64,000 nucleotides of DNA from a bacterium (GTDB lineage: Bacteria > Patescibacteriota > Microgenomatia > Curtissbacterales > GWA2-41-24). Every line of letters begins with the position of its first letter. The first letter of the stretch is position 1. A program made the position numbers and the translations under genes. The stretch lies in the NCBI GenBank assembly GCA_021813945.1, contig JAKAJD010000001.1, forward strand, positions 560,412 to 624,411, given 5' to 3'. Shown here one piece after another: positions 16,662 through 40,354 of this stretch. The notes beneath the pieces were generated by a model, which saw nothing but the letters and a program-made list of their open reading frames with translations, ran no database searches and was not told the origin of the DNA.

Positions 16662-16667
16662 ACCTTA

Positions 16668-16686: not shown

Positions 16687-16765
16687 GCAAAAGATTGGTT
16701 ACCTCATCCAGCTCCGAACCTTGATTTAACCGCTTCTAGGTTTTAATCTTAAATCAGGGGGAAAT

Positions 16766-16918: not shown

Positions 16919-16920
16919 AA

Positions 16921-17316: not shown

Positions 17317-17371
17317 GCAGAGTTTGTCCAAATATTCCCATTGAGTTAAAATAATGACGATGTTTCCAAAG

Positions 17372-17425
17372 CAAAGGCCAGGCCTTTGCCCAAGATAGTC
17401 CCACGCTAAGGCCTAGCCTTATCGT
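17372..17425. repeat. Palindromic repeat (type 2) immediately upstream of tRNA-Arg
   Basis: AAAGGCCAGGCCTTTGCC ... TAAGGCCTAGCCTTATCG. Confidence 0.55.
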
Positions 17426-17431
17426 AAGCGC

Positions 17432-17504
17432 GCCGCTGTAGCTCAATGGATAGAGCAGTCCCGTCCTAAGGGAAAGGTTGGAGGTTCGACTCCTCTCAGC
17501 GGTA
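17432..17504 (+). tRNA. tRNA-Arg (anticodon CCT)
   Basis: Manual cloverleaf: 7-bp acceptor stem (G1-U72), D-arm GCTC/GAGC, anticodon loop GTCCTAA, T-loop TTCGACT, 5-nt variable loop. One 27:43 mismatch. No encoded CCA. Confidence 0.75.
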
Positions 17505-17629
17505 CATTGTTTACGCCGAATGAAAATGAGGCGGGGTGTAGTGTATCGGTATCGCGACTCCGTCCGCGTATTGTTACACTAACTACTGAAATCGTTGTTT
17601 CAGTAGTGTTCCGCAATATCACGCAAAGA

Positions 17630-17702
17630 CGGGGTGTGGCGCAGTTGGTAGCGCGCGTCGTTCGGGACGGCGAGGCCGTCGGTTCGAATCCGACCACCCC
17701 GA
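17630..17702 (+). tRNA. tRNA-Pro (anticodon CGG)
   Basis: Manual cloverleaf: acceptor CGGGGTG/CACCCCG with C1:G72 (typical of bacterial tRNA-Pro), D-arm GCGC/GCGC, anticodon loop TTCGGGA, T-arm GTCGG-TTCGAAT-CCGAC. Confidence 0.85.
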
Positions 17703-17731
17703 CTAGGGTTCACTTTTTGGCAAAGCCAAAA

Positions 17732-17765
17732 ATATCAGAGGAGTCCCGAAGGGAAGCTGCTGATA
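17732..17765 (+). repeat. Mini-variant of the ATATCAGAGGAG...CTGCTGATAT structured element, sitting just 3' of tRNA-Pro
   Basis: Shares both termini with the 8705 and 46065 elements; the core is replaced by TCCCGAAGGGAAG. Confidence 0.4.
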
Positions 17766-17836
17766 TTCCCAGCACCCCGACACAAAACAAAAACCCCCAA
17801 AATGGGGGCTTTTGAATTTAAAATCCTGTCTAGAAA

Positions 17837-18673
17837 TTATTTCCCTGCGTTGACGTTTGCTTCAACGAAACTTACACACGAACCCTGGTTCTTAAATACC
17901 GGATTGTTGAAATTCTGCCAACCGCCCTTCTTGCACTCGTCCTTATTAGTCGGAGTCGTCAAAACGATTGTGTTGTTTTCAAAATCGTAGGTCTTGGTAT
18001 TTGTCCCGTCAAATCCAAGCGTCGCATTATCAACATAGCCGACAAGTACGTCACTTATAGCATTTGGTCCAACCTGGAAACGTACTCCACCAGTTCCATC
18101 TGCTCTAGTCCTTACGGAGATTGACACAACATTACCCGGCAGACAATTCGCCAAATACTGTGCAAGTGTCCCAGGTCCGAAGGCACTACACGGGAGTGTT
18201 GAACCCCATTTTCCGTTCAGCGCATCCCAAGACTGCCATACACCTGCTACCGGAGCCTGTAATTGATCCCGAGGGTCAAAGGTAAGCTCATCGGGGATTG
18301 TTGTAGTTGTCGTATTTATGTTTACATCAACTATCAGCTTCGGATAAGAAGCATTAGAAGCTCCTACTGGAACATATGTTGCGTAGCTTGCAGCCGCGTT
18401 GGCAAAATTAGTCGTTGATTGTCCGTCATAGGCTGTCGTGTGAATTGCTGAGAAGTTCGATCCGTTTGAGCCTGAAGCCAGTTCCACACTTCCTGCACCC
18501 GCTGGAGGGGTTCCCGGCCCAGTCACAAATTGGCCAAGACCGTCTGCCGCATTTGTCTGGAAATCCCATGTACCTTTATTGGAAGGTGAAATAACTGTCG
18601 CAGCCAAAACGGGGCTGGCCAAAAGGGTGCTAACTGCCATAAACGAGGTAATTCCCAATATTAACTTTTTCAA
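17837..18673 (-). CDS. Secreted hypothetical protein (signal peptide)
   Basis: MKKLILGITSFMAVSTLLASPVLAATV signal; Thr/Asn-rich. Confidence 0.5.
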   Translation of the reverse strand: MKKLILGITSFMAVSTLLASPVLAATVISPSNKGTWDFQTNAADGLGQFVTGPGTPPAGAGSVELASGSNGSNFSAIHTTAYDGQSTTNFANAAASYATYVPVGASNASYPKLIVDVNINTTTTTIPDELTFDPRDQLQAPVAGVWQSWDALNGKWGSTLPCSAFGPGTLAQYLANCLPGNVVSISVRTRADGTGGVRFQVGPNAISDVLVGYVDNATLGFDGTNTKTYDFENNTIVLTTPTNKDECKKGGWQNFNNPVFKNQGSCVSFVEANVNAGK

Positions 18674-18740
18674 AAAATATCACCCCCTTTGGACAGAAGA
18701 TGTTTCCTAAGTTATCCCAAACCCCACAAACAGTCAAGAT

Positions 18741-18787
18741 AGGCAAATTGACACACTCCGCCAGATAATAGATCATAGAAATAGGTT
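18741..18787 (+). promoter_or_regulatory. Conserved pilin upstream element, copy 2: GGCAAATTGACAC-N-ATAATAGATCATAGAAATAG. Consensus -35 TTGACA.
   Basis: Collinear with 14620..14661; ends 1 nt before the ATG at 18788. Confidence 0.4.
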
Positions 18788-19351
18788 ATGACTCTGCCCA
18801 GAGAAAATTTTAAATTTAAAATTATAAATTTCAAATTAAGGAAAGGTTTTACCCTCATCGAGCTTCTGTTGGTAATTTCAATTATTGGCATATTAGCTGC
18901 GATCTCTTTCGCCTCTTTCACCCAAGCACAAACGAAAGCCCGTGACAGCAAACGGAAATCGGACTTAAAAGCCATTCAGCAGGCCCTGGAACAATATTAT
19001 CAGGCAAACAACATCTATCCCAACACAAACGGCGGAAAAATTCAGTGTAACACTACGAGCCCTGTTCCAGACGTAAACACAATCAATTGGGGATCTATTT
19101 TTCAATGCGCCGGCTTAATTTATCTGAACCCGCTTCCTAAAGACCCTGCATTTGACCCAAGCACCACCATAGACTATTACTACACTCCTCTTCCCGGCAA
19201 CCAAAAATATATGATAAGTGCAACAATCGAAAACAAAAATGACTCCGAAAATAAAGCCAACCCGTCATACATAACAGGTTCACTACCCTGCGATAACCCA
19301 ACATACAACGGGCCAACTTCTGGGAGAACCTACTGCGTAATAAACCCCTAA
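18788..19351 (+). CDS. Type IV pilin-like (GspG-like) protein, short form
   Basis: RKGFTLIELLLVISIIGILAAISFA prepilin motif; conserved LNPLPKDP segment shared with the two larger pilins. Confidence 0.75.
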   Translation: MTLPRENFKFKIINFKLRKGFTLIELLLVISIIGILAAISFASFTQAQTKARDSKRKSDLKAIQQALEQYYQANNIYPNTNGGKIQCNTTSPVPDVNTINWGSIFQCAGLIYLNPLPKDPAFDPSTTIDYYYTPLPGNQKYMISATIENKNDSENKANPSYITGSLPCDNPTYNGPTSGRTYCVINP

Positions 19352-19389
19352 ATTAAGTATTTTGTATCTGGTATTAAGCTATAAGCGAG

Positions 19390-19764
19390 TTATGTTCTTG
19401 GGGGAAACTTTTTCGCGCTTTTAATAAGTCCATTAATTAGCTTGCTAACGACAACAGATTGTTCAGACACCTGCTTATAATCCTCTAAGGATAAGTACTC
19501 CAAATCCCTCGAAATAATCACCTGATTCTGAACCTCAGTTAATGATCCGAGAGACATGTAATAAAACTGCACTTTCTCCTTTGCCCCGTTTCTGGAAAAT
19601 CCTTCAGCTATGTTACTTGTTATCGAGACGGCAGCTCTTCTAATCTGGTCAACGATACCAAATTTTTCGATACCAGGAAACTTCTTAGTAACTTGATAAC
19701 AAAGAAGCACCAGTTTGTGACCCTCTTTCCATGCTTCAAGCTCCGTAAACGACTTTATCCCCAT
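19390..19764 (-). CDS. Four-helix-bundle protein of the 23S rRNA intervening-sequence protein family
   Basis: Family hallmarks: FTELEAWKEGHKLVLLCY ... SITSNIAEGFSRNG ... SLGSLTEVQNQVIISRDLEYL. Confidence 0.8.
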   Translation of the reverse strand: MGIKSFTELEAWKEGHKLVLLCYQVTKKFPGIEKFGIVDQIRRAAVSITSNIAEGFSRNGAKEKVQFYYMSLGSLTEVQNQVIISRDLEYLSLEDYKQVSEQSVVVSKLINGLIKSAKKFPPRT

Positions 19765-19798
19765 ACTAAATACTTTATACTCGATACTTAATACTTAT

Positions 19799-20053
19799 TT
19801 ACGCCATCAGCACGAAAAAGCCGGCAAGAACGGCAATAAGGGCAATAAGAAGGTATTCCAAAAACAATCTGCCGGTTGCTTCCCTTTTGGCGTGATGATA
19901 CGAAAATCCCCAAACAATATAAAACGTTGCCAAAAGAACGATTATTAAAAACTGTTCTGTCGGGCTGTAGCGTGCCAAATAAATCGCAACCATTCCAACC
20001 CCAAATCCAAAATACAAAAACAGATGCGCCAATTTTTCCAGTTTTTTATTCAT
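19799..20053 (-). CDS. Small 3-TM membrane protein, hypothetical
   Basis: 84-aa ORF with three hydrophobic helices. Confidence 0.35.
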   Translation of the reverse strand: MNKKLEKLAHLFLYFGFGVGMVAIYLARYSPTEQFLIIVLLATFYIVWGFSYHHAKREATGRLFLEYLLIALIAVLAGFFVLMA

Positions 20054-20090
20054 TTAGTTTTGACTTTTGCCTTTGAACTTTGAGTTTTCA

Positions 20091-21059
20091 TCATATTATT
20101 GCTCCTTGTACCGCATACCAGATCACCAAAAGCACAAATCCCAACATACCCAAATGCGCCAAAACTCCGGGCCTAAGATGCAAATTATCGCGCCTTACAA
20201 CAAATAAAACTTCAATTGCAAACAAAAAGAAAATAAATCCTACAATTGCCAAAGTCACAATTTTTGAAATAGAAAATTGTCGGCTGGCAAGAACCGTCGC
20301 GCTGGCAGCCGGTGCAGCACCCTGTTCCAAATTTACATTATCGCCTGGGTTGATAACGGCAAGCGGCGCAGGACTTGGACTTGGGATAGGTGTGGTCTGC
20401 AAGGCAACTTGTTTTCCGGCAGTTTGCGGCGTTGGGCTGGGAATTGGGCTTGGTGCCTGAGCAAGAGTCGGTGCAACAGGCACTGCCGCAACCGGCGTAC
20501 CAAACATTTGCACCACCAAAATCCCGTCAACACCGGTTAATTTCCCCGAAGCAACGGCAACCCCGATTTCTTTAAAATTGGCATCCAGTATGTTTTCTCT
20601 GTGGGAAGGTGAATTCATCCAGGCATCAACAACCGAACCGGCATCATTAAAATCTCGGGCTAGATTTTCGCCTGCGTAAATGTACCTATATCCGGCGCCG
20701 GTTATAAAACTCCAAGGTGTTCTACCTAAAGGGGAATTATGAGCCCAGTAGTTAACAGAAAACATATCCTGTGCTTTGGCTGCTGCAGCAGCCGCCAACT
20801 GACCGTTGTAAGTTAAAGGGCCCAAACCGTTTTGCACCCGCTTGGCATTTGTTAAATCTATAATTTGCTGAGCGGAAAATGTAGCGACTCCCAAAACCTG
20901 AGGCGCCCTAAGTTTCACAAAATAAAGACCTGCAATTAAAAAGACAAAAATCTGGAAATAGGTAAAAAGTGCTGGAACTGTTAATGCGTGGGCATGATGC
21001 TGCTTGCCATCTTCGTGATGATGAGGAATAATTTGCCTGGCAATTTTCCGATGGATCAC
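20091..21059 (-). CDS. CAP/SCP/PR-1-like domain protein (YkwD-like) with a His-rich N-terminus, a Pro-rich linker and two TM anchors
   Basis: CAP motifs: GYRYIYAGENLA, WMNSPSHRENILD, NFKEIGVAVASG. Confidence 0.75.
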   Translation of the reverse strand: MIHRKIARQIIPHHHEDGKQHHAHALTVPALFTYFQIFVFLIAGLYFVKLRAPQVLGVATFSAQQIIDLTNAKRVQNGLGPLTYNGQLAAAAAAKAQDMFSVNYWAHNSPLGRTPWSFITGAGYRYIYAGENLARDFNDAGSVVDAWMNSPSHRENILDANFKEIGVAVASGKLTGVDGILVVQMFGTPVAAVPVAPTLAQAPSPIPSPTPQTAGKQVALQTTPIPSPSPAPLAVINPGDNVNLEQGAAPAASATVLASRQFSISKIVTLAIVGFIFFLFAIEVLFVVRRDNLHLRPGVLAHLGMLGFVLLVIWYAVQGAII

Positions 21060-21197: not shown

Positions 21198-22292
21198 TCA
21201 ATCAGGCAGAATTGACAGTTTGTAAACATTGGCAATTTTCGTCACTGCCGGCTTGGCGGTTCCGTCATCTCTAAAGATGGCAGTCGAACCTCCAAACGAA
21301 GTCCAGTAATTCATCCCAGCCACATTAGGATCTTTAACAAGAAGCGCAAGCGCCGAATCAATCCACCCTGCTTGTTCATCTTCCGTCATATTGCCGTTAA
21401 TATCCGGAATCGGTACACCTGTCTCCCCTAAAAAGATCTTGGCATTTGCCTTTTTAGCCAAACTATCGATGTCACCCAATAACTTATCCGCCCTATCAAC
21501 ATAGTGGTCTATGGCCACTACTCCACCCATCTGCTCTGCAGTATCTGAATCCATCACAAGTTTGGCGATGTCATAGTTCATTGACCATAAACCGCAATCG
21601 ACTTTCTTCCCGATTTTGGAAAATTCCGAATCGCACAACTGCTTTTCATCTATCATAAAGTTTCGAAAACCCGAAACGTCGCCGTTATTTCTAGGATCAC
21701 CAGGCCCTCCGTTTTCGCATTCAGGGCAAGGGCTAAAAATATCGCCGTCGACAAAAAGGTTGGGATTTTTTCGGATAAAAGCCGCAAGTTTAGTTTTGTG
21801 TTCATCCCGGCTCAAATCAGCAGGAACTCCGAACCAACCTTCCCATCCTGAAAAGTTGCCCCGAAACCAGACGTGAAGGTTGTAGCGCCTGGCAGCCGCC
21901 ACCCATCTCGAAAGGATCGGCACAAAGCGGTCGTCATAAGGCGTAGCGATAGCTACAGTATTAGCACCGGTTGCCGCAATACTTTTAACCTGTGAATCAA
22001 TAACTGCGTCAAAACGAGGATCGGTAATAGCTTGCGCCGAAAGATCTCTGGAAAATTTCATCGTGTCGACAGATTTAACACTCCATGTACGCTCCTGGGG
22101 CGCAGTCGGTTGTGGACCTTGTTGCACGGTAAAAATTGGCTTTTTGTTAAACATTAAAAATCCTAAAACTGCCGCAAAAACCAAAAGCACAGCAGCCAAA
22201 ACCCCAACCCAAAGCTTACTTTTGCTTGCCCAAAACCGGTTCATAGTTAAGCCCTCCCAAATACTGTGGTTTGATCTCATAAATATCCGCAA
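21198..22292 (-). CDS. Glycoside hydrolase, TIM-barrel clan GH-A (GH5/GH113-like), membrane-anchored
   Basis: N-terminal TM; GNFSGWEGW and IFLGETGVP motifs are consistent with the acid/base and nucleophile Glu of clan GH-A; family assignment is uncertain. Confidence 0.5.
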   Translation of the reverse strand: MRIFMRSNHSIWEGLTMNRFWASKSKLWVGVLAAVLLVFAAVLGFLMFNKKPIFTVQQGPQPTAPQERTWSVKSVDTMKFSRDLSAQAITDPRFDAVIDSQVKSIAATGANTVAIATPYDDRFVPILSRWVAAARRYNLHVWFRGNFSGWEGWFGVPADLSRDEHKTKLAAFIRKNPNLFVDGDIFSPCPECENGGPGDPRNNGDVSGFRNFMIDEKQLCDSEFSKIGKKVDCGLWSMNYDIAKLVMDSDTAEQMGGVVAIDHYVDRADKLLGDIDSLAKKANAKIFLGETGVPIPDINGNMTEDEQAGWIDSALALLVKDPNVAGMNYWTSFGGSTAIFRDDGTAKPAVTKIANVYKLSILPD

Positions 22293-23847: not shown

Positions 23848-25359
23848 TTATTTATTCCTTTCAAGGGAAAATAAGGTGAAACCGAAAACAGCAATTATTG
23901 AGACTAAAATCACTAAATAAAAGACATTGAGGGTTAATAAGTGATCTAAATAGGTATTGTAGAAAAAAGAACTGGTAACTCCTTTTTGAAAAACATCCCA
24001 ATTGAGCATGTAATTCCATTTCATACCAAGCGCTACTGCCTCAACCTGCGGGGGAACTTGATTTGTTGTTATTGCTCCTAAAAGGTTGACAGAGGCTCCA
24101 TAGCAAAAAAGTCCAAAAAGCATTAGATTAAACCAAATCTTCTTTCTGAAAAGATCTACCGCTTCTGAAATAAAAATTGCCGCGAAGGCAAAAATGGGAA
24201 CCAAGTACCTTGGCCCAAATGCCCAACCGCCATACGGGTCACCCCACATCGTGTATAAGACAAAAATGAAAAGTACTGTGCCGATTAGTGCGACCGATTG
24301 CTCATATCTTCGCCTGATAAGCTCCCCTATTCCTAAAACAGCTACAATTACTATTGGCGCGTAATATATGAATCCTCTATCTTCGCTGAAAACAAGAGTG
24401 GCGAAACCGTGGCCCATCCTTCGTGTATTAAAAAATCTTGAAGTATTTTTCTGAGTTGAGAGCGTCTTAATAATGGGAGCATTATTCTGATCAAAATCCT
24501 TAACAGACGTTAAAGTTCCCGCAAGCTGAAAAGGCTTGTTAAAAACCGTTAAGCTGTAAAGTGAGTAGGCTCCTAAAGCCAGGACTATACCTAAAACTGC
24601 CAGAAGGAAGCGGGCTTGGAAAAAGATTTTCGTATATCTGCTGTCCCTTTGTACTTTTATTACGGTTTGCACAGCATAAAAAATTAGCGGGATAAAAAAT
24701 ATCGGGTTTTGGGAATCTATCCAAAATGATAGTCCAACCAAAAAAGCGGCTATCCCCAACCTAATAACATTCCTTTTGGAAAACAGCAAAGCAGCTGTCG
24801 AAAGAAGCAAAAAAGTAGTCAGCTGATGCTGGTAATAGGAAACGCTATACGCAAATGACGTTGTGGCAAACAGATAGCTGAGCCCTCCAACAATAGATGC
24901 TTTAAAAGAAATTTTAAGCTGCTGGCAAATTTTCAAAATCAGAAGAAAGTTCAAAACCGCAAAAAATGCAGGCATCGCAAAAGTAGATACCTGAGCCAAG
25001 TTAAATGGTGCACCTAACAAATAAAATGGCACACCCAAAATAGACATCCCGGGTGATACGAGAAGTGTGTACTTACCACTAAAAAACCCCAAATCGGGTG
25101 TTACAATTTTTGCGATATCTTGCCTCAAAAAGAAGCTGTGATCTTGGGCAAGAGACATTGTTAGGGCGTACCTACCCCGCTCCGGAGATAACTCAAAAGG
25201 CTGACCCATCACCTTCTGCTCATTATAAATTTGCGAAGATGTCGGATTTCCGTAATTTCCTTTCAAGGTTAAAACAAAAATAAGCGAAATAAAAATTACA
25301 AAAAAAGCGACTAAGAATTTTTTCATACGAGGCTCTTTGTTGTTTTCGAAAGCTCCCAT
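23848..25359 (-). CDS. Polytopic membrane protein, putative GT-C glycosyltransferase (PMT_2-like)
   Basis: Many TM helices; N-terminal ERGRYALTMSLAQDHSFF segment; adjacent to the other GT-C gene. Confidence 0.4.
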   Translation of the reverse strand: MGAFENNKEPRMKKFLVAFFVIFISLIFVLTLKGNYGNPTSSQIYNEQKVMGQPFELSPERGRYALTMSLAQDHSFFLRQDIAKIVTPDLGFFSGKYTLLVSPGMSILGVPFYLLGAPFNLAQVSTFAMPAFFAVLNFLLILKICQQLKISFKASIVGGLSYLFATTSFAYSVSYYQHQLTTFLLLSTAALLFSKRNVIRLGIAAFLVGLSFWIDSQNPIFFIPLIFYAVQTVIKVQRDSRYTKIFFQARFLLAVLGIVLALGAYSLYSLTVFNKPFQLAGTLTSVKDFDQNNAPIIKTLSTQKNTSRFFNTRRMGHGFATLVFSEDRGFIYYAPIVIVAVLGIGELIRRRYEQSVALIGTVLFIFVLYTMWGDPYGGWAFGPRYLVPIFAFAAIFISEAVDLFRKKIWFNLMLFGLFCYGASVNLLGAITTNQVPPQVEAVALGMKWNYMLNWDVFQKGVTSSFFYNTYLDHLLTLNVFYLVILVSIIAVFGFTLFSLERNK

Positions 25360-28985: not shown

Positions 28986-29946
28986 GTACTTTTGCTAATT
29001 TTGGTGAATCGTTTCGAGGCCAAAAATCGACAAACTTCAAAATAGGCCTGGCCGCAAACGCTAGTCGCATTTTGAAAATCATATAAAAAACAAACATCCA
29101 AGGATCGCTTACAAAAAACTTCCATGCGACTCTTAAATCGAAAATTAGGCTGTCTTTAAAAACGTTTTGGACAATCTCAGGTTTGAAATAATTGTTAACG
29201 ATTTTTTCAGCAGAAACGTTTTTTCTGTACTCACCCACAAAATCCCCGATGCTCGTTGGACATCGGAAAATTCGAACCGCAAAAGGCGCAAAAACCGTGT
29301 CGAAATTATGGACCTTGCACCACAAGTGGGCATAAACATCCTCGGGAACACCTGCCGGCCATTTCAGTTTGGAGTAAACTTGTTTCGAAAATAAACGACC
29401 GCCTCGCCCGCATGTGTACCATTTTCTTTTTGTATAATCGCTAATTTCAAAATAGTGATAAAGCCTCGATTGCATTGACAAAACCTTCTCCATAATGGTT
29501 TTTCCGGCCAAAGGTTTGGCGTTTCCTTGAACCAAACCAATAGATCTGTTGCGCGCATAAGGTTCGACTAAATAATTCAAGTAGTTTTTCCCGTCGGTTA
29601 ACGTATCAGCCTCAAGAATCACGACAGCATCACCTTTTGCCATAGAAAAAATTTTATTCTGACAAAAACTTTGACCTTTTCGGGTCTGGTTATCAACAAG
29701 TTTTACCCGATTGTCCTTATATGTCTTGACGATTTGGCCGGTCCTATCGTTGCTACCGTCACTAACAACGATAATTTCCTGCAAACTGAACCATGTTTGC
29801 TTCTGGTTCAAAGTTTCTCTCAGCAAACTCCTTATATTCGCTTCTTCGTTGTAAGCCGGTATACCAACCGTCAAATTTACTTTTCCTTTCATATTCTTGA
29901 ATTTCCTTTCAAAAAACCACTCATGATAATTTTCTGTTCTTTTCAA
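28972..29946 (-). CDS. Glycosyltransferase family 2
   Basis: TVGIPAYNEEANIRSLL ... VVSDGSNDRTG. Confidence 0.8.
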   Translation of the reverse strand: MKRTENYHEWFFERKFKNMKGKVNLTVGIPAYNEEANIRSLLRETLNQKQTWFSLQEIIVVSDGSNDRTGQIVKTYKDNRVKLVDNQTRKGQSFCQNKIFSMAKGDAVVILEADTLTDGKNYLNYLVEPYARNRSIGLVQGNAKPLAGKTIMEKVLSMQSRLYHYFEISDYTKRKWYTCGRGGRLFSKQVYSKLKWPAGVPEDVYAHLWCKVHNFDTVFAPFAVRIFRCPTSIGDFVGEYRKNVSAEKIVNNYFKPEIVQNVFKDSLIFDLRVAWKFFVSDPWMFVFYMIFKMRLAFAARPILKFVDFWPRNDSPKLAKVHEQI

Positions 29947-32900
29947 TTATTTTTTCTAAGGTCTCGGTGCTTTGTTCCCAGCTAAAGTTTTCCGCCCATC
30001 TAACGCTAAACTTCTCGAAATCCCGCCTTAGGCGGTCATCGCGAATAAGCAATGTGATTTTTTGTGCAAGTTCAGATGAATCTCCCCAAGGCACCAGAAA
30101 ACCGTTGTGCGGATTTTTGACTGAATCCCGAAGACCGGGAACGTTAGAAGCTACAACTGGAGTACCACTGGCATTAGCTTCAATCACTGTGATCCCCCAA
30201 CCCTCGACCATTGAAGGTTGTGCAAGAACCCACGATTTGGCTAGCAGATCTGTCTTTGTTTTTTCGGATATCTTCCCTAGAAACTGAACGGCGTCACCAA
30301 GCTTAAGCTCCTCTGCCAGCTCCTCAAGTGAAGACCTGCTTTCACCTTCGCCTGCAATAACAAGCTTTGCTTTCTGCATGTCCGCCTTTATAAGAGCAAA
30401 AGCCTTAATGAGAATATCTATAGATTTATAAGGTTTCAGTCTTCCAAGGTATAGAACCACTGGACTTTTAGCTTTGGGCATGGGTTTAAATTTGGTTAAA
30501 TCAACACCCGGATGAATAATATCGATTGGAATTTTCCTTCCCAAACCAATCTTTTCCATATCCAGCTTTGATGATTTGGAGACGGTAACCAGCTTCACAT
30601 TCTGATAAATGAATGGCATAAGAACCCCTTCTAGAAATTTTCCGAACTGCGCAAAAGGAAATCTCAACTTTGTGCGGAAAACGTCTTGATGAATATGATG
30701 GACCAGTCCGACAATCGGTTTGCCAACATAAAGGGGAGTAAAAAACGGAATTCCGTTTTCGCTGTCAATGACTAAATCAAAGTGCTTTCTAAGCTTTAAT
30801 AAATAGTAAAGAGGCGCCAGAAGGTAGATTGTGTAAAAACCGCCGCGCCTTATGATCTCCACCCCGTCTATACATTCATAAGTTGGATTTTTTCTGTCAT
30901 TCCCACAAAAAACAGTCACCTGATTGCCATTTTTGATAAGACCTTTGGCTATCTCGTGTATGTAAACCTCCGCTCCTCCCGCCCAAACATGACGAGTGTC
31001 CCTCCAGTTGAAAATAAGAATTCGCTTTTCTGCTTGCCACGCAGGTCTTTTCGGTAAATCAAACTTGAATAAATCAATGATGTCCTTAAAATTTGAACCC
31101 AAAGTTGCCAAATCATCTCTAAAGAAATGCAAAATCATAACCGCAACGAGATTGGCAATACCGGCGACTAGCATTACGTCAACAATCTGTGGAACGGAAT
31201 TATGAAAGATGAAAATCCCGCCAATTTGGCCTAAAGCCAAAACAAAACTAACTATCGGGAAAATATGTTGGTGTTTAACCTGGTAATAATTGACAATTCT
31301 GGCAGCTATCGTAAAAGCCAAAATTCCAAAGCCGTAATAAGGAATCAAGTGTTCGACAGGGTGAATCTTTTGTCCTATCAAAAGCTCGGCAACCTCAAAG
31401 CCTAAAAAGGAAACTCCTAAATAAACCATGGTGCTGGAAATAGCTGATGCCAAAAACAACTTGTAAAATGCCTTTCTGCTGTCTCTTTTTGCGCCTTCCT
31501 CACGGCTAATTATCGGTGTAATAAATTGACCGAAAAGTCCACCCATGAAAAAGATCATTTTGCCAAAAAGCGCGAGAACCGCGTATTCACCCGCCTCTTT
31601 GGGTGAAAGAAATACTTTTGCCAAAATCACATCAAAGCTTAAAAATGCCAGGATCGAAAATTCCGAAAAAGCCGAGGTCATAAAGAAATGGACAGGAAAT
31701 TTAATTGCTTTTTTTACATTAACAACTACCTCCTTCTCAGAAACTGCATTAACTGAAAGCCAAGCCAAAAGCGCGGCTATGCCAATAGACGCCGGAATTG
31801 CTGCATAAACGTATTGCGGAAGTCCTAAGCTCACTAAAATCCAGCTGATTACAAATTTGGAAATAGCACCCACAACCATCAACCCGGCATATATGACAAA
31901 TTTCATATTTCCGTACAAAAAGCCAACATCAATTGCTGAAATTAAGCCCAAATACCAAACCGGAGCAAAAAGCACAAAAGGTAAGATTGAATCCGATTTA
32001 AAAATAGGAGCAATAAAAGGACTCGCCCCAAGCCATAAACCTGTAAAAACAAGTCCAAAAACAATCGCTCTTTTTCTAACCTGTCGCCAAAATAATTTAA
32101 CCGGACTTCCGTATTCTCCTAAAAAATAGGCACTTCTATGGGTGACTGTTCGGGAAAGGCTGTTAAATGGGATAGTGACTATAAACAAAAAGCTTCCCAC
32201 AAGGCTAACCAAACCAAATTGCTCAATAGAAATCGTCCTTCCTAAATAGGCGTTATAAGCAAAATTGAAGAAGTTTCCGACAACTGAAGCCAAAATCAAA
32301 ATACCTCCTGCAGCCTTGCCAGATTTAGCCAGTAGGCGCAGTTTGGCTACGTCAAAAAGTCCTGTATACGCTGCCTTGGGAGCCGGAATCGGCTCGGTTT
32401 CGTCCTCAACAAATTCTTTCTCAAGATTTCTGTTTTCCAAATTAAGCCCGTGGACGGTCTTTTCCCAAAAGTGCGGTTTAAAAATAAGCTGGTATAGCGC
32501 CTTTACACCGGCAACTGAAACCAAAAGCCAGTAAAATGGCACCAGAAAGACATATCTCATTAGTCCCCATTGCTCCCTTTTGGCACAGCCAATCATGTAG
32601 TAGTAGACAAAAAGGAAGTTGCCAAAAACCAAAGAAGAAACAGCCATGTAGAAAATAAATGATGGAAAAAGAGCTTCAATTGTTGTTCCAACCGCGGCGT
32701 TAAGCACAAAGTAAGCAATTGTCAAAAGCCACAAAATCGGATTGATAAAAATGAAGGCAATCTTTCCGCCCACTATCAGCTGGAAAATAAACGCGTGGAT
32801 GCCGTTTTCGCGCACGAACTCCACCGGGTTTCGCGTATGAACCAGATAAGTCTGCATATAACCTTTAATCCAACGCGACCTCTGGCGGATCCAATTTCCG

Positions 32901-34570
32901 ATTTGGCTATTAGCTTCTTCTAAAGTTGTTGAGTCGATAATTGCCGTCTTGTAGCCGATCTTAAAAAGCCGAACTCCCAAATCGGCATCCTCGGTTACGT
33001 TGAAAGGGTCCCATCCTTCAAAACGCCTAAGGTCCTCTGTTCTAAAATGATTGCTGGTTCCCCCAAGAGGAATTGCAGTATTGATCGATTGCATTCCGGT
33101 TAACGTGAGGTCAAACCAAAGCGAATATTCTGCTGTAAAAAGCCTGGTTAAAAAGTTCTGATCCGGGTTAAAGTAGTTGAGCTTCGCCTGCAAACACACG
33201 ACCTCCCGGGGCAACTTCAAAAAGCCCAAATAAGCCTTTTTAAGCTGCTGCGGGTCGGGTATATCCTCGGCATCGTAAATAACCACGTATTCCCCTTTTG
33301 CAAGCGTTAAACCGTAGTTGCAAGCCTTAGGTTTCGTTTTGGGCAAGGAATGAGGAACAATAACTTTTTTGATATATTTCGGAAGCTTACTGTTATCCAG
33401 CGCTTTTATTGTCTCTTTGTCGTCTGCTTCCAAAAGCAGCAAGACATCCAGCTTTTCCTTTGGCCAGTCAATAGCCTCCAAAGCATCCAGAAAGTTAGGT
33501 AAAATGGCAGCTTCCCGATAAAGAGGGCACAAAACCGAATAAACGGGCAGCTCTTCATCGTCGAGTTTAGCAATTTGCGATGGTGTAAAAGTTATATCCG
33601 GCGGAGACTGAAGACTTCTTAAAACCAAAAAAAGATTGAAAACTACGTCAAAAAAATAGATCGTTGAAAGAACTGCAATGAATACTGCAACCGCTTGCAG
33701 CGGCCCTAAAAAAAATCCCAGCGCTGCTGCCCCAAAAATCGAAGCGAAAATGACTTTCTGCAAAAAAGTAAAGTTGATAACCGCCGATTTTCTGTGGCTC
33801 AAAGTTGTGTGGGTTATGAATTTTCGCCCTAAAAAACCGACTCCCGCGCCGCGCATCACTTCCCCTTCTTCGGGCCTAATATGAACAGGTGCTTGCCGTA
33901 GGGTTTTTAAAGCCAGCGCATTGGTTGCCAAATCCCAACCGTTTCTCAAAAAGCTTATTTTTGAATCCCCACCTTGGCGTTTTTCAAACGCAACATCCAC
34001 TTCACCAACTGAAAAACCGGCATTTTTAGCTCTCACCAAAAATTCCAAATCGAAAGACCAGGGTGATTTTGGACTAAACTTTACTGTTTCAAAAACTTGG
34101 CGCTTAAAAGCTTTAAGGCCGGACTGAACGTCACAGCCAATGCCGTGAAGCAGTCTGCCAAAGGCAAACTTAAAGATCTTGGAAAAAGTTTTTCGAAATA
34201 TTGGCGCTTTATATTCGCTTCTGTTGGCAACGACAATGTCAACTTCCGAAAGGCCTGAAACAAGATCGGCGATTGCTTCGGGCGGATACTGCAAATCCGC
34301 ATCTATCATCACCAAAATATTGCCGGAAGCTTTAGAAAAACCTTCAACGAGTGAGTAAGACTTACCTTTCTCGCCCTCTTTTCTAAAGACTCTGAGCGGG
34401 AATTTTTTCCGAAGTTTTAAAAGAAGTTCCCACGTGCCGTCGGTTGAAAAATCGTCAACAACTACAATCTCATGTGCTTTTGGGAACGCGAAAAGTGCCT
34501 TCTCGATACGCTCGAGCAGGCTTTCAACATTACTAACCTCGTTAAATGTCGGTACTACGACACTAACCAT
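29921..34570 (-). CDS. Four-module mega-glycosyltransferase (1549 aa). In order: a Dpm1/GtrB-like polyprenyl-phosphate sugar synthase GT2; a processive GT2 with the QxxRW motif; a polytopic membrane domain with about 12 helices; and a C-terminal GT4.
   Basis: Module 1 (about 33880-34570): VVVPTFNE, VVVDDFSTDGT, MIDADLQYPPE. Module 2 (about 32770-33550): YDAEDIP, FRTEDL, TEDADLG, QRSRW. Module 3 (about 31030-32770): multi-TM, MOP/flippase-like. Module 4 (29921-31030): EGWGITVIEANASGTPVVASN of GT4. Confidence 0.8.
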   Translation of the reverse strand: MVSVVVPTFNEVSNVESLLERIEKALFAFPKAHEIVVVDDFSTDGTWELLLKLRKKFPLRVFRKEGEKGKSYSLVEGFSKASGNILVMIDADLQYPPEAIADLVSGLSEVDIVVANRSEYKAPIFRKTFSKIFKFAFGRLLHGIGCDVQSGLKAFKRQVFETVKFSPKSPWSFDLEFLVRAKNAGFSVGEVDVAFEKRQGGDSKISFLRNGWDLATNALALKTLRQAPVHIRPEEGEVMRGAGVGFLGRKFITHTTLSHRKSAVINFTFLQKVIFASIFGAAALGFFLGPLQAVAVFIAVLSTIYFFDVVFNLFLVLRSLQSPPDITFTPSQIAKLDDEELPVYSVLCPLYREAAILPNFLDALEAIDWPKEKLDVLLLLEADDKETIKALDNSKLPKYIKKVIVPHSLPKTKPKACNYGLTLAKGEYVVIYDAEDIPDPQQLKKAYLGFLKLPREVVCLQAKLNYFNPDQNFLTRLFTAEYSLWFDLTLTGMQSINTAIPLGGTSNHFRTEDLRRFEGWDPFNVTEDADLGVRLFKIGYKTAIIDSTTLEEANSQIGNWIRQRSRWIKGYMQTYLVHTRNPVEFVRENGIHAFIFQLIVGGKIAFIFINPILWLLTIAYFVLNAAVGTTIEALFPSFIFYMAVSSLVFGNFLFVYYYMIGCAKREQWGLMRYVFLVPFYWLLVSVAGVKALYQLIFKPHFWEKTVHGLNLENRNLEKEFVEDETEPIPAPKAAYTGLFDVAKLRLLAKSGKAAGGILILASVVGNFFNFAYNAYLGRTISIEQFGLVSLVGSFLFIVTIPFNSLSRTVTHRSAYFLGEYGSPVKLFWRQVRKRAIVFGLVFTGLWLGASPFIAPIFKSDSILPFVLFAPVWYLGLISAIDVGFLYGNMKFVIYAGLMVVGAISKFVISWILVSLGLPQYVYAAIPASIGIAALLAWLSVNAVSEKEVVVNVKKAIKFPVHFFMTSAFSEFSILAFLSFDVILAKVFLSPKEAGEYAVLALFGKMIFFMGGLFGQFITPIISREEGAKRDSRKAFYKLFLASAISSTMVYLGVSFLGFEVAELLIGQKIHPVEHLIPYYGFGILAFTIAARIVNYYQVKHQHIFPIVSFVLALGQIGGIFIFHNSVPQIVDVMLVAGIANLVAVMILHFFRDDLATLGSNFKDIIDLFKFDLPKRPAWQAEKRILIFNWRDTRHVWAGGAEVYIHEIAKGLIKNGNQVTVFCGNDRKNPTYECIDGVEIIRRGGFYTIYLLAPLYYLLKLRKHFDLVIDSENGIPFFTPLYVGKPIVGLVHHIHQDVFRTKLRFPFAQFGKFLEGVLMPFIYQNVKLVTVSKSSKLDMEKIGLGRKIPIDIIHPGVDLTKFKPMPKAKSPVVLYLGRLKPYKSIDILIKAFALIKADMQKAKLVIAGEGESRSSLEELAEELKLGDAVQFLGKISEKTKTDLLAKSWVLAQPSMVEGWGITVIEANASGTPVVASNVPGLRDSVKNPHNGFLVPWGDSSELAQKITLLIRDDRLRRDFEKFSVRWAENFSWEQSTETLEKIIEKNRKLS

Positions 34571-34722: not shown

Positions 34723-36924
34723 CTAGAATAAGAAGTGTCTCAAGGCCATGGCGCTGGCGGCAAATCGGGAAAACAGCCTAGACACCAAAACCGAAGGCTT
34801 AGGAAAGGTGTATCCCCGAAGTCGCGTAACGTAGGCAACCACAACCCTCCAAGGTCTTGCAATTAACCTTTGGGCAATATAGAGAATCCCCAAGTAACCA
34901 AGAATCATAAATGCCGTCTCCAGCCAGTTTCTAGCGGATGCAATGTTAGACGCGCCCTCTAGTCCTTGCCCCGAACTGCTGCCCCCACTTGTCGAAGCCG
35001 CCAAAACGTCCGGCACAATGCCGCCTGTTGGAAATACCGAAACATACGATAGTCCTACCTGGAAACTTGTTTGTGAAGAAGAAGAAATTATGTCGTCACT
35101 TGGCCCGACCTTGCCCTGGGCATCGACTTCGGCAGAGTATGTACCCGCCGGTGCTTTTTCAGAAAGCACCAGGCCAAAGGAAATATTAGCTACATGTCCG
35201 GAATCCAGCTTGCCAACACCAAAACTTTGCTCGGAAGCCAAACTACCGTCCGGCGCCCACAGCTTGAAAGTTATATTGGTGTCGTAAACCGGTCCGGTCC
35301 CGCTGTTTTTGGCTGCAGCAAAGAAAGTTACCGTATCGCCTGGATTTACATAGCCTCCAACGTTAGTCGAAATTTTGGTCGAAAGCGCACCTCCGGGACC
35401 ATGCACATCCGGCTGACTCTGACTTTGACTCTGACTCTGACTTTCAGTAGCCGCAAACTGGCTAGCCCCGCCAATATCTCCATTTAAAGTCCCAAAAATG
35501 TTAATAATTCCAAAAAATCCCTTTACGTTTACAAAATTGGCATTGACAAAATTGATAATATTCACAACAGAAAAGGCCGAACCTGTTCTAATCGACCCGT
35601 TACCAATACTATTGCCACCTGTGTTAGCAGAAGAAACCACCCGGTTTGTTAAACTTACCGAGTTACTCTGCGTCAAATCACCGCAACCACAACTACCGCC
35701 TACCCCTCCTTGGCCTAAAGGCCCGAAATCAAAACTCATCAAGCCGTAAACTGGATCCGCCGCCCCAGCACTTCCCCAACCCAAAAACTTACCATTCCAA
35801 GTTCCTAAATTATTAATAAGAAGCTGGGCAAAACTGCCTCCAAAGATATTTAAATTGGCAAAATTGGAAACATTAACAGCCGTCGTTGCATTACCGGTCG
35901 ATGTATTTCCTCCGCCACTGGTATTTGATCCGCTATTTGATGTAGCTTCCACATTATTTTGGATGTTGGCACTATTTTGCTGGCTTACGCTCCCGCCTCC
36001 GCTTTGACTCTGACTTTGACTTTGACCTGACCCGCCTGTCCCTAAATTGTCCGGCAAAACAATATTGCCGGAAACATTCCCAAAAAGATTCAATACGACA
36101 AACTTAATGCTGGACCCGAAAAAGTTTGTATTAATAAAGTTCAAAAGGTTAACCGAAGAATAAGCATTTCCGGTCTGAACATTACCTGTACCCAAAACGC
36201 TGTTTTGTCCGCTATTGGCAGCAGCATATATAAGGTTAACAACTAGCGCATTGTTGCTTTGGTTTCCAACAACTACCATTGCCGAGGGAAGCAGCTGACC
36301 ATCGGCAAGCTGCGTCAAGTCAATATTGCCGTTTTCGTCGGCATAAACATTCTTGATGCTATAAGCATATGCAGAGTCGGCAATATTGCTGTTTGCCGAA
36401 TTGACTACAGTCACATCGGTTGTGGCGCCACCGGTGTTAATATTGCCGCCGACAGAGCCAGTATTATTAGTGGAAGGACTTGCTGACCCGCTTGCTTCGA
36501 CTGTAGCAGACTGTGTCGCTTGGTTACTTTCTATATCAGAAGGTGTACCTACTGTATTATTTCCGGTATTGGAAGTAGAAGAAACATTATTGCCAACTGT
36601 CGCGTTGTTCTGCTGGTTAACATCGCCGCCCGGGCAGCTTGAAGGACAAGGCGACGGTGATGGGCTTGGGTCAGGGCTTGGTGTCGGGCTTGAATCAACC
36701 GAAGTCGTTTGAGTCGTTGGTATGGGTGTTGGGGTTGGTGACGCTGATATCGAAGTATCAGATGCGGGTGTTGGACTCGGTGAATCCGAAGGGCTGGGCG
36801 TTGGAGTCGGTGTTGGATCAGTAGTAGTTGTACCAGTCGTCTGATCTGCCCACACCAACCTTCCGGGCAAAAACCCGATCGACAAAAATATTATTAGTGT
36901 AATCGCTGTAATTCTTTTAATCAT
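34723..36924 (-). CDS. Cell-surface protein with a signal peptide, a Thr/Pro/Ser-rich linker and Asn/Ser/Gly-rich repeats. (SQ)n tracts are encoded by hexanucleotide repeats. C-terminal hydrophobic anchor.
   Basis: MIKRITAITLIIFLSIGFLPG signal; [21 protein letters not shown] linker; GACTCT/GACTTT tandem tracts at 35414-35445 and 36003-36030. Confidence 0.55.
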   Translation of the reverse strand: MIKRITAITLIIFLSIGFLPGRLVWADQTTGTTTTDPTPTPTPSPSDSPSPTPASDTSISASPTPTPIPTTQTTSVDSSPTPSPDPSPSPSPCPSSCPGGDVNQQNNATVGNNVSSTSNTGNNTVGTPSDIESNQATQSATVEASGSASPSTNNTGSVGGNINTGGATTDVTVVNSANSNIADSAYAYSIKNVYADENGNIDLTQLADGQLLPSAMVVVGNQSNNALVVNLIYAAANSGQNSVLGTGNVQTGNAYSSVNLLNFINTNFFGSSIKFVVLNLFGNVSGNIVLPDNLGTGGSGQSQSQSQSGGGSVSQQNSANIQNNVEATSNSGSNTSGGGNTSTGNATTAVNVSNFANLNIFGGSFAQLLINNLGTWNGKFLGWGSAGAADPVYGLMSFDFGPLGQGGVGGSCGCGDLTQSNSVSLTNRVVSSANTGGNSIGNGSIRTGSAFSVVNIINFVNANFVNVKGFFGIINIFGTLNGDIGGASQFAATESQSQSQSQSQPDVHGPGGALSTKISTNVGGYVNPGDTVTFFAAAKNSGTGPVYDTNITFKLWAPDGSLASEQSFGVGKLDSGHVANISFGLVLSEKAPAGTYSAEVDAQGKVGPSDDIISSSSQTSFQVGLSYVSVFPTGGIVPDVLAASTSGGSSSGQGLEGASNIASARNWLETAFMILGYLGILYIAQRLIARPWRVVVAYVTRLRGYTFPKPSVLVSRLFSRFAASAMALRHFLF
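35414..35445 (-). repeat. In-frame hexanucleotide tandem repeat (GACTCT/GACTTT)n encoding (SQ)n
   Basis: Seen in sequence; second tract at 36003-36030. Confidence 0.6.
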
Positions 36925-38722: not shown

Positions 38723-40354
38723 CTAATTGACAAGTAGGCTTGATGTAGTCTGGGAGTTGCCGATATCATAGGTATAACTCGTCTTGGCAACGTTTGTAAC
38801 AGCGGATTTATAGGTTCCGGTTTGCGACGATCGCAACCTGAATGTGATAGTCCCGTCCGTTGCTGTCGTGCCGGAACCGGAAGATTTACCCCCGGAAGGT
38901 TGTGTCACCATAACTGAAACTGTAGCGCCAGAAACCGGATTGCCGCCGGCATCCAGAACCGTCACCTTTGTGTAAACATTTCGAGTCCAAAACGATTTTG
39001 TGAACCACATCGAGATATTAGAAACGTGCATCACCAAACTCGGAACAGGTGTTGGCGTCGGTGTCGGAGTCGGGCTGGGTGTGGGTGTTGGTGTAGGAGT
39101 TGGGGTTGGGGTAGGTGTTGGACTTGGGGTAGGTGTGGGTGTCGGACTTGGAGCCGGTGATCCTCCACCAACTGCCCTGTACGCATTAATGCGCCCATGT
39201 GCCCATAAAGTACCAGTCCCACCAATTGAGTCGGCAGTATTTTCAATCTGGGCCTTCACGCAACTATTGGTAGAACATAAACCGCTTGCCCAAACCAAAG
39301 CTGCAAGGCCGGCAACATGAGGCGTCGCCATCGACGTTCCCGAAAGGGTTCCATAGTCTGTTTGACCAATCGAATTTGTATGGGTCGGCAAAGTCGAAAA
39401 AATGTTAACTCCTGGCGCCGCTACGTCCACCCAGGATCCATAGCTTGACCAGCTCGGCTTAACATCATTACTATCCGTCGCCGCAACCGACATCACATTA
39501 GGGTAGAAAGCCGGGTAAACCGGTGAAGAGTTGCCGTTGTTGCCGGCTGCCGCAACCACCACTACTCCGTGACTCCAGGCATAACTGACAGCATTGGCCA
39601 AAGTCGAAGAGCTGCTAGAACCGCCAAGACTCATGCTTATTACCTTGGCACCGTTATCCGTTGCCCAAATAATCCCATTGGCAACCCAAGAGTAGTATCC
39701 CGAACCGTTATCATCCAGAACCTTAACATTCATAAGCGAAGACTTGTAGCCGACTCCGGCAACACCAACATTGTTATTGGTCACAGCCGCTGCAATTCCG
39801 GCAACATGAGTGCCGTGTCCGTAAAGGTCATCAACGGTTGAGCTGGTTGTGAAGTTTTGGTTAGCCACAATTTTGGAAGACACATCCGGATGGTTCTGGT
39901 CAATACCGGTATCCAAAATGGCAATGTTAACCGCAGAACTGCCGGTATTTAAATCCCAAGCGCTTTGCGCACTGGTGTTTGCAGCCTGGATTTTAAACAT
40001 TCCCCACTGCTGTGAAAGATAAGTATCATTTGTAGCTGTCATAGCTTTGGCTACAAAATCCGGTTCCGCAAATTCAACGGACGGCAATTTCAAAAATGTA
40101 GAAGAAAATCCGTCTTCCAAACCTTGTGGAACTTCAAGCGCCAGCACATTAATTTTATCCAGCCTATCTTTTACCCTCACCCCAAACCTGGAAACGGTTG
40201 AATTTATTTCGTCCTGTGATGTGCCCATCCTAAACTTAACCAGGACTCTTCCTGTGGTGTGCTCGCCAAAATTCGGCCCGGAAGCCAAGGTATTAGCTGA
40301 AAGAGGCAGAAACAAAAGGAGTGAAATTAGGCAAGATGTAAAAAATCTTCTCAT
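38723..40354 (-). CDS. Subtilisin-like serine protease (peptidase S8) with a signal and propeptide, a PT-repeat linker and a C-terminal beta domain
   Basis: Catalytic triad motifs ILDTGID (Asp), [11 protein letters not shown] (His), [11 protein letters not shown] (Ser); (PT)n linker encoded by a GGTGTN repeat at 39038-39150. Confidence 0.9.

Follow-up and report, generated by a model that had tools for sequence, protein, structure and literature searches.

A polysaccharide synthase of the BcsA type translocates its own product. In the PSP pathway of lactococci, a glycan is made by a set of separate proteins: WpsA and WpsB produce GlcNAc-P-C55, cytoplasmic glycosyltransferases extend it, and the Wzx-type WpsG serves as its flippase, after which WpsH and WpsJ, both GT-C enzymes, carry out its polymerisation and its attachment to a rhamnan, while GacI, GacJ, GacK and GacL of Streptococcus pyogenes constitute a monosaccharide version of such a transmembrane glycosylation (PMC10821137). 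Here we analysed a window of 64,000 nucleotides (contig JAKAJD010000001.1 of assembly GCA_021813945.1, positions 560,412 to 624,411 of the forward strand) from a member of the Curtissbacteria, which belong to the Microgenomates group of the Patescibacteria. Nine genes of this window follow one another on one strand, barely spaced or slightly overlapping, and the first encodes a membrane protein of 1549 amino acids (aa) that joins four modules: a predicted polyprenyl-phosphate sugar synthase of glycosyltransferase family GT2 (module 1, GT2a), a predicted processive synthase (module 2, SYN), a divergent Wzx-type domain of the MOP superfamily (module 3, MOP), and a glycosyltransferase of family GT4 (module 4). 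The cluster contains the same set of parts as the PSP pathway (WpsA/B, WpsC-F, WpsG, WpsH/I and WpsJ) and as GacI/J/K/L. Yet in those systems all parts are separate proteins and the rhamnan acceptor comes from a different pathway, whereas the protein described here unites three of the parts, together with a BcsA-type synthase, in one chain, and no WpsB/GacJ-like activator was seen. By analogy, the fusion may represent the cytoplasmic and flipping half of a GacIJKL/WpsA-J-type glycosylation system joined to a synthase-dependent exporter. We give a probability of roughly 55% to the model, built on sequence comparison and on these analogies, in which the fusion protein would be the hub of a nine-gene glycan-assembly operon making a decorated surface polysaccharide.

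The four-module gene is genuine and conserved in Patescibacteria. It is one uninterrupted open reading frame (ORF) with an ATG start, 1549 codons and a stop, exactly as claimed in a first-pass annotation made from the letters of the window, and the longest ORF in any other frame across the same interval has 106 aa. Among 5.8 billion proteins searched, there are at least 120 full-length, collinear homologues with 48-71% identity and lengths of 1527-1922 aa, only five of them outside the range of 1530-1610 aa. They stem from NCBI, ENA, JGI and Logan and, where a name is given, are called just "glycosyltransferase", from Curtiss-, Beckwith-, Gottesman- and Levybacteria, Microgenomates or Patescibacteria. 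In an alignment of 100 full-length homologues, on which all conservation values below are based, every module keeps its catalytic signature with little or no variation, and conservation is unbroken across every module junction. The identical 1549-aa protein is encoded on seven contigs from independent assemblies, including two ENA runs and GCA_027349345.1, the longest of these contigs measuring 975,962 bp. Because of these seven contigs and the collinear homologues we reject a chimeric misassembly, and we give next to no weight to the view that the modules are separate genes joined by an assembly error or a missed frameshift: a few relatives (L007 and L015 in the locus set below) do have overlapping ORFs at module boundaries, possibly through frameshifts, but the recurrence of one identical product and the continuous conservation over the junctions stand against it.

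Every motif quoted in the first-pass annotation was recovered in the translation, namely VVVDDFSTDGT (aa 36-46), MIDADLQYPPE (aa 88-98), QRSRW (aa 563-567) and EGWGITVIEANASGTPVV (aa 1456-1473), and the modules follow each other in the order it had proposed, with support from hidden Markov models, folds and motifs and with invariant or nearly invariant catalytic residues. Pfam profiles distinguish the GT2, the processive GT2 and the GT4 domains, and the Polysacc_synt match of the third module is borderline.

Module 1 is predicted, from sequence and model, to be a polyprenyl-phosphate sugar synthase. It matches Pfam Glycos_transf_2 (PF00535) at aa 3-162 (3e-39), with sub-threshold NCBIfam matches to ArnC, AglJ and PgfS, and its best sequence matches in the PDB are all polyprenyl-phosphate glycosyltransferases, namely the DPMS of Pyrococcus furiosus (PfDPMS, 5mlz, E 2e-30), ArnC and GtrB, to which it is 33%, 30% and 26% identical, respectively, and with which it shares the DADLQx motif. 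In an AlphaFold model of aa 1-745 (predicted local distance difference test, pLDDT, 88.9; predicted template modelling score, pTM, 0.85), module 1 superposes in Foldseek on these three enzymes with root-mean-square deviations (rmsd) of 2.6-3.4 Å (3.0 Å over 230 columns at 33% identity for PfDPMS; 2.6 Å for ArnC). In PfDPMS, 89-DADLQH-94 serves metal and donor binding, E12, R202 and K208 belong to the A-loop network, and R117, R131 and S135 to the dolichyl-phosphate site (PMC5526996). A HMMER alignment places PfDPMS E12, D89/D91/Q93, R117, R131, S135, R202 and K208 on E11, D90/D92/Q94, R117, R126, S130, R198 and K204 of module 1; E11, D90, D92, R117 and R198 are invariant, Q94, R126 and S130 are conserved in at least 90% of the homologues, and K204 is conserved. 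Unlike PfDPMS, ArnC and GtrB, module 1 lacks a transmembrane (TM) domain of its own. AlphaFold helices at aa 124-142 and 207-223 stand at the positions of the interface helices IFH1 and IFH2, and the two TM helices that follow belong to the synthase, the stand-alone orthologues of which start just before them in other phyla. Ppm1 of Mycobacterium tuberculosis (Rv2051c) is likewise a DPMS domain anchored by fusion to an unrelated polytopic, Lnt-like membrane domain; the likeness is one of logic only, since the partner is different and neither a synthase nor a MOP domain is fused to it. The same logic is found in the mycobacterial pathway to phosphatidylinositol mannosides, lipomannan and lipoarabinomannan (LM/LAM), which leads from a cytoplasmic GT4 (PimA) through flipping to GT-C elongation with polyprenyl-phosphate mannose.

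Module 2 is predicted, again from sequence and model, to be a processive polysaccharide synthase, both polymerising and translocating. Pfam matches at aa 344-627 (Glyco_tranf_2_3, 4e-31; Glyco_trans_2_3, 3.5e-20) and sub-threshold NCBIfam matches to PgaC, CelA and an XrtG-associated glycosyltransferase are joined by fold matches of the model to BcsA (4p00, rmsd 5.1 Å over 446 columns) and to the Chlorella virus hyaluronan synthase CvHAS (9yq5, 5.2 Å over 454 columns). As in BcsA, HAS and NfrB, the D, DxD, TED and QxxRW motifs are present and a GT-A domain is framed by TM and interface helices, although identity to these enzymes is only 21-22% and the synthase has four TM helices plus interface helices where BcsA has eight. 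The motifs E381/D384, D433-A-E435-D436, T526-E527-D528 (T526 in at least 90%) and Q563-R-S-R-W567 are invariant or nearly so, and with a mean column conservation of 0.78 (catalytic domain) and 0.75 (TM region) the synthase is the best-conserved portion of the whole protein. Also invariant is P699..W702-E-K-T705-x-H707-G708, the tryptophan of which lies 139 residues past the Q of QxxRW. BcsA and HAS carry a gating-loop motif after the last interface helix, FxVTxK and WGTR, respectively, and the cytoplasmic WEKTxHG sits where BcsA has its gating loop, to which we presume it to be equivalent. At the aligned position the Escherichia coli synthase NfrB reads WDKTTH, so that TEDxD, RQxSRW and W-D/E-K-T-x-H after the last membrane helices are common to both. 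NfrB, an MshEN-regulated, MshEN-activated synthase for which an N-acetylmannosamine polymer was proposed (PMC8669469), was considered as a close relative of module 2 and set aside, being distant only (22% identity). No PilZ or MshEN domain is present in the fusion protein, unlike in synthases of the BcsA/NfrB type.

Module 3 is a borderline, divergent member of the Wzx-type branch of the MOP superfamily as judged by its sequence, and is predicted to act as a flippase for a polyprenyl-phosphate-linked glycan. Polysacc_synt (PF01943) matches aa 756-1007 with 26.0 bits in the whole protein, under the cut-off of 28.2, and with 29.0 bits when the domain is scanned alone; among 24 members of the module family, eight match PF01943 (best 4e-11) and two match MatE. 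Profile comparison (hhalign) with E. coli WzxC gives a probability of 85% (E 6e-6, 322 columns) and with RfbX of only 29%, and a search of PDB profiles with the MOP family gave nothing meaningful. AlphaFold places 12 helices at aa 752-1149, with pLDDT mostly above 85, in a model of aa 350-1549 (pLDDT 86.4). This 12-helix domain is about 400 aa long; the third module of the first-pass annotation, with about 580 aa and roughly 12 TM helices, had also taken in the C-terminal membrane helices of the synthase (aa 591-697) and a linker (aa 703-740) that is disordered over about 40 aa, with pLDDT values under 50. Accordingly, the module junction it had put at about 32770 falls inside the synthase, and the true junction between synthase and MOP domain lies at 32336-32446.

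Module 4 is covered at aa 1198-1520 by Glycos_transf_1 (PF00534, 5.6e-45) and Glyco_transf_4 (PF13439, 3e-15), with sub-threshold NCBIfam matches to MshA, BshA, EpsE, PglH and PglJ. Its GT-B fold matches MshA (3c4q, target-normalised TM-score 0.81, rmsd 2.6 Å) as well as BshA, PimA and PglA, and it contains G1198-G-A-E1201, the EX7E motif E1456-x7-E1464, both glutamates of which are invariant, and the likewise invariant R1377/K1382 as a putative phosphate-binding pair.

The arrangement of these modules relative to the membrane was derived from loop charges averaged over the family, following the positive-inside rule. Loops rich and poor in K/R alternate cleanly in the MOP domain, giving 12 TM helices with both ends inside, and the linker (aa 709-751) is placed in the cytoplasm. 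With a cytoplasmic linker, only aa 591-622 and 637-664 would span the membrane after the QxxRW helix, aa 668-697 would form an interface helix, and the invariant WEKTxHG would be cytoplasmic. Taken together, sequence and models give the fusion protein 16 TM helices with all three glycosyltransferase domains facing the cytoplasm. This bears on the linear pathway that the first-pass annotation had read from the order of the modules, in which a self-contained surface-glycan synthase makes the lipid-sugar donor, polymerises it, translocates the product through the MOP domain and completes it with the GT4. All four modules are present and apparently active, as judged from their motifs, but a cytoplasmic GT4 could not act after export, synthases of the BcsA/HAS class export their own product, and inverting GT2 synthases take nucleoside-diphosphate sugars as donors rather than polyprenyl-phosphate sugars. 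Nor is the protein self-contained: the eight other genes of the cluster are conserved alongside it and contribute another five domains of family GT2, a pair of GT-C-like membrane transferases and a protein outside the cytoplasm. We therefore consider this linear pathway very improbable.

In order to compare gene neighbourhoods, one genome per GTDB species was scanned for the synthase motifs PLGGTSNHF and QRSRW[IL]KGY, which gave at least 596 loci; 80 of them (L001-L080) were retained and their ORFs searched module by module with phmmer. The fusion had been called unusual: it is not a rarity of one genome but belongs to a large family, and the same modules are split or recombined in relatives. 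The full GT2a-SYN-MOP-GT4 fusion occurs in L001-L004, L009, L010, L017 and L030; split variants comprise GT2a-SYN beside MOP-GT4 (L022, L027) and GT2a-SYN-GT4 beside MOP (L020), and further variants are SYN-MOP-GT4, GT2a-SYN-GT4, SYN-GT4, SYN beside MOP, and GT2a-SYN alone. Searching exhaustively with the MOP domain only, we obtained 136 representatives at E ≤ 1e-30, among which, by length and match position, stand-alone MOP and MOP-GT4 are common and SYN-MOP-GT4 and full fusions also occur. GT2a-SYN and MOP-GT4 are the two basic and commonest pairs. Following the Rosetta-stone argument, such recurrent but differently arranged fusions suggest that the modules work together. Many of the metagenome-assembled genomes behind L001-L037 are titled "uncultured Gammaproteobacteria", "Bdellovibrionales" or "Verrucomicrobiia", labels that are probably wrong, unless the bins are contaminated.

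Three membrane-associated partners, referred to here as W543, W503 and W364, and GT2 genes trail the synthase gene in most of the 37 Patescibacteria-type loci (in about 15-25 of them according to the gene, with several loci truncated at contig ends). Over all 80 loci, W543 was found in 52, W503 in 26, W364 in 21 and the GT2 genes in about 25, and W543 is the best conserved partner of the synthase. In Chloroflexi/Ktedonobacteria (L046/L047), the synthase even carries a fused W543-like domain at its C-terminus. Within Patescibacteria, W543 proteins share 62-83% identity, which makes W543 more conserved than the fusion protein; it has at least 3712 relatives at E ≤ 1e-5, and in its top 120 homologues every name given by the source is "hypothetical protein", most being unnamed.

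These neighbourhoods also speak to the idea of a lipid-primed synthase, in which module 1 would make a primer, GT4 perhaps add a second sugar, SYN elongate it, the MOP domain move the lipid end, and W543 ligate the polymer to an acceptor. GT2a-SYN is the most frequent sub-fusion, a DPMS-like GT2 directly follows SYN in Paenibacillus, and the fusion of a W543-like domain to SYN in Chloroflexi would fit as well. On the other side, five extra GT2 domains are left unexplained, some loci lack module 1, the MOP domain pairs most tightly with GT4 rather than with SYN, and to our knowledge no synthase of the BcsA/HAS type uses a polyprenyl-phosphate primer. Even with GT-C ligation of lipid-linked polymers having been proposed in lactococci, for WpsJ (PMC10821137), we regard this scheme as unlikely.

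W543 has an invariant D59 just past its first TM helix and a C-terminal soluble domain. It has no Pfam match itself, but 11 of 33 family members match PMT_2, and comparison of its family with the PMT_2 proteins encoded beside SYN in Paenibacillus and others gives an hhalign probability of 100% (E 6e-53, 479 columns). W503 matches NCBIfam NF047440 (LA_3751/LA_3752 putative glycosyltransferase; 8.9e-16), three of 28 members of its family match PMT_2, and the W503 and W543 families appear to be remote relatives (hhalign probability 91.7%). Both are best read as GT-C enzymes using polyprenyl-phosphate-linked donors outside the membrane, and, as in transmembrane glycosylation systems, these profile-based GT-C candidates are encoded with a GtrB-like GT2 and a flippase, in the same operon. 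PDB profile searches with W543, W503 and W364 gave nothing meaningful. PMT_2 being the family of protein O-mannosyltransferases, W543 and W503 might instead O-glycosylate S/T/P-rich surface proteins, as actinobacterial Ppm1/Pmt do, or turn a membrane lipid into a lipoglycan, as in LM/LAM, with the SYN polymer a separate product and the fusion serving co-regulation only. The resemblance of the GT4 to PimA and PimB', the P/S/T-rich linker of the CAP-domain protein at the end of the cluster and the mycobacterial logic of PimA, Ppm1 and GT-C enzymes would agree with such an acceptor; the tracking of SYN by the W543 family over many phyla, up to their fusion in Chloroflexi, is hard to square with unrelated targets, and we judge this alternative quite unlikely.

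We thus favour the model of a decorated surface polysaccharide. The synthase would polymerise a backbone from a nucleotide sugar and extrude it via its own membrane helices, while module 1, held by the two N-terminal TM helices of the synthase, would load a sugar onto polyprenyl phosphate. GT4 and the five downstream GT2 domains may lengthen this lipid-monophosphate-linked sugar in the cytoplasm, and the Wzx-type MOP module would flip the lipid-linked sugar or oligosaccharide. Outside the cell, W543 and W503 would transfer the flipped glycan, perhaps polymerising it, to the backbone as it emerges or to some other acceptor in the envelope. The records for about 5.5 to 62 kb of the window list no phosphoglycosyl transferase, in agreement with initiation on polyprenyl monophosphate.

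Several points weigh against this model. That the GT-C enzymes accept the SYN polymer is suggested by fusion and synteny only, their own assignment as GT-C comes from profile comparison, with no sequence match in the PDB, and no synthase of the BcsA type is known to us to have its product decorated via polyprenyl-phosphate sugars and GT-C enzymes. Some Patescibacteria loci (L005, L006, L013, L016) keep SYN-MOP-GT4, W543 and W503 with no DPMS-like module within 10 kb, so that module 1 is not always locally encoded. The pTM of the model of the C-terminal 1200 aa is only 0.65. Finally, residues that contact the sugar in PfDPMS differ in module 1, His94 being replaced by an invariant Tyr95 and Lys178 by Ser172, and specificity is unreadable from the sequence; because of these two positions the sugar is not necessarily mannose. 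After DADLQ, module 1 has Tyr where DPMS has His, ArnC Asn and GtrB Asp.

The synthase core is not restricted to Patescibacteria, as it is found with 45-56% identity in Chloroflexi, Nocardioides, Solirubrobacterales, Paenibacillus, Cohnella, Mucilaginibacter, Ignavibacterium, Planctomycetota and others (L038-L080). MshEN-fused synthases share with module 2 both N-terminal TM helices and the motifs PKTKPKACN, PLGGTSNHF, NVTEDxDLG, RQRSRW and WEKTxHG, but at their N-terminus they have between one and six MshEN domains where the fusion protein has module 1, and neither MOP nor GT4 is fused to them. MshEN is a receptor of cyclic di-GMP (c-di-GMP) known to be fused to glycosyltransferases (PMC5013675). 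In a Chloroflexi genome (L038, 7511-11386) six MshEN domains stand in tandem (E 2e-90), an unusually large c-di-GMP-sensing array for one glycosyltransferase. W543-family PMT_2 proteins adjoin SYN in Paenibacillus, Cohnella, Sporolactobacillus, Oscillospiraceae and Chloroflexi, and some of the MshEN-fused synthases also have a DPMS-like GT2 as neighbour. In Paenibacillus foliorum (L048) the order is GT4, GT2, MshEN-SYN, a GT2 fused to GtrA_DPMS_TM, PMT_2, GH92, GH26-CBM35 and PMT_2, both PMT_2 proteins scoring above the Pfam cut-off. The DPMS-like enzyme of P. foliorum thus has its own GtrA_DPMS_TM domain, in contrast to module 1. Based on this comparison of loci, module 1 occupies the place of MshEN in Patescibacteria, and a DPMS-like enzyme devoid of a GtrA/DPMS membrane domain goes together with a MOP domain. 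The two glycoside hydrolases between the PMT_2 genes of P. foliorum (14285-18641) belong to the alpha-mannosidase family GH92 and the beta-mannanase family GH26 (with CBM35). Mannan as the polymer, at which they hint, was not retained: GH26 recurs in L053 only and GH92 nowhere, and no sugar identity is claimed.

Each module is of a known kind and the logic of the pathway has precedents. In the open-access literature on glycosyltransferases, fusions, flippases, cellulose synthases and transposon sequencing of Patescibacteria and the candidate phyla radiation we found no description of this protein or cluster, nor, in the open-access literature at large, of a synthase fused to those parts of a polyprenyl-phosphate glycosylation system that act in the cytoplasm and in flipping, or of a cross-phylum pairing of this synthase family with PMT_2-type GT-C enzymes. 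Patescibacteria are ultrasmall episymbionts whose genomes, about 1 Mb in size, encode few biosynthetic pathways, and yet an operon with ten glycosyltransferase domains is conserved over many of their lineages; as these domains are widely kept despite the small genomes, the glycan product is probably central to the envelope, perhaps for attachment to a host. As genomic evidence, the variable fusions point with unusual directness to cooperation of a BcsA-type synthase with a polyprenyl-phosphate sugar synthase, a Wzx-type flippase, a GT4 and a PMT_2-type GT-C, a combination for which the literature searched gave no description either, and a likely role can be assigned to W543, a large family of hypothetical proteins. 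Very tentatively, one may go further and propose that two routes to polysaccharides that textbooks treat as alternatives are coupled in a single polypeptide of Patescibacteria, that together with W543 it builds the principal glycopolymer of their envelope, and that the core of synthase and GT-C under c-di-GMP control (MshEN) is a widespread, undescribed exopolysaccharide system in Firmicutes, Actinobacteria and Chloroflexi. The occurrence of this core in cultured Paenibacillus, Cohnella, Nocardioides and Mucilaginibacter makes the hypothesis testable without culturing members of the candidate phyla radiation.

The coordinates of the fusion protein, its parts and the other genes of the cluster are collected in Table 1.

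Table 1. Features of the fusion gene and of the genes downstream, in window coordinates; residue numbers (aa) refer to the 1549-aa protein unless another gene is named.
Feature	Position	Strand	Evidence or remarks
Whole ORF, four-module membrane glycosyltransferase, gene 1 of the cluster	29921..34570	(-)	ORF, Pfam, homologues
Module 1, DPMS/ArnC/GtrB-like GT2 (predicted), aa 1-255	33806..34570	(-)	Pfam, PDB sequence matches, Foldseek
Module 2 (SYN), processive GT2 synthase (predicted), aa 256-712	32435..33805	(-)	Pfam, NCBIfam, Foldseek
Module 2, TM1, aa 269-288			
Module 2, TM2, aa 290-321			
Module 2, GT-A domain, aa 344-552			
Module 2, QRSRW, aa 563-567			on interface helix
Module 2, TM3, aa 591-622			
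Module 2, TM4, aa 637-664			
Module 2, IF3-like helix, aa 668-697			
Linker, aa 713-745, of low conservation, with many K/R and D/E residues	32336..32434	(-)	alignment, AlphaFold, topology
Module 3, 12-TM domain of the MOP superfamily (PST/Wzx-type), aa 746-1170	31061..32335	(-)	Pfam, hhalign, AlphaFold
Module 4, GT4 retaining GT-B glycosyltransferase, aa 1171-1549	29924..31060	(-)	Pfam, Foldseek
GT2 gene, no TM segment	28972..29946	(-)	orthologues in 26 loci; called elsewhere as 306 aa from 29892
GT2 gene, 306 aa, no TM segment	28065..28985	(-)	
Gene with two GT2 domains, 612 aa	26225..28063	(-)	
GT2 gene, 301-313 aa, one C-terminal hydrophobic helix	25323..26264	(-)	
W503, polytopic (at least 10 TM) GT-C-like membrane protein	23848..25359	(-)	NCBIfam, hhalign
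W543, putative PMT_2-type GT-C membrane glycosyltransferase, 543 aa	22216..23847	(-)	hhalign, synteny
W364, N-terminal single TM anchor and extracytoplasmic domain	21198..22292	(-)	invariant E151, E191, E193, D262-H263, E290
CAP-domain membrane protein, P/S/T-rich linker, end of cluster	20091..21059	(-)	Pfam CAP, 3e-21

W364 is possibly a glycoside hydrolase, as four of 19 members of its family weakly match Glyco_hydro_cc (best 4e-4); a relation to the GH26 enzyme of Paenibacillus was considered and dropped, since hhalign shows none. It is uncertain whether the CAP-domain protein is part of the glycan system, its orthologues being found in three related loci (L018, L024, L033), several kb upstream of the synthase gene. 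Scans of the operon for promoters and terminators gave sites no more numerous than in shuffled sequence; one promoter-like site lies at 34666-34638 on the minus strand, in the gap upstream of the fusion gene.

Immediately upstream of the fusion gene, a protein of 733 aa (34723-36924, minus strand) has a weak MG2 match only and a homologue in a single related locus (L018), and seems to stand outside the conserved cluster. The whole neighbourhood looks envelope-related: a sortase, a PEGA-domain protein, a type IV pilin (N_methyl) and the CAP-domain protein are encoded just downstream (13747-21059), and an S8 subtilase with Ig-like domains lies at 38723-40354. A larger protein of 1786 aa (47026-52386, minus strand) matches Pfam MG2, A2M_BRD and A2M together with PT-HINT and Hom_end_hint, and resembles a bacterial alpha-2-macroglobulin-like protein with a Hint/intein-like insertion. 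Finally, two small genes at about 40.4-40.9 kb and 19.4-19.8 kb match Pfam 23S_rRNA_IVP, one of them also weakly bAvd, and could encode four-helix-bundle proteins of the kind that accompanies diversity-generating retroelements.

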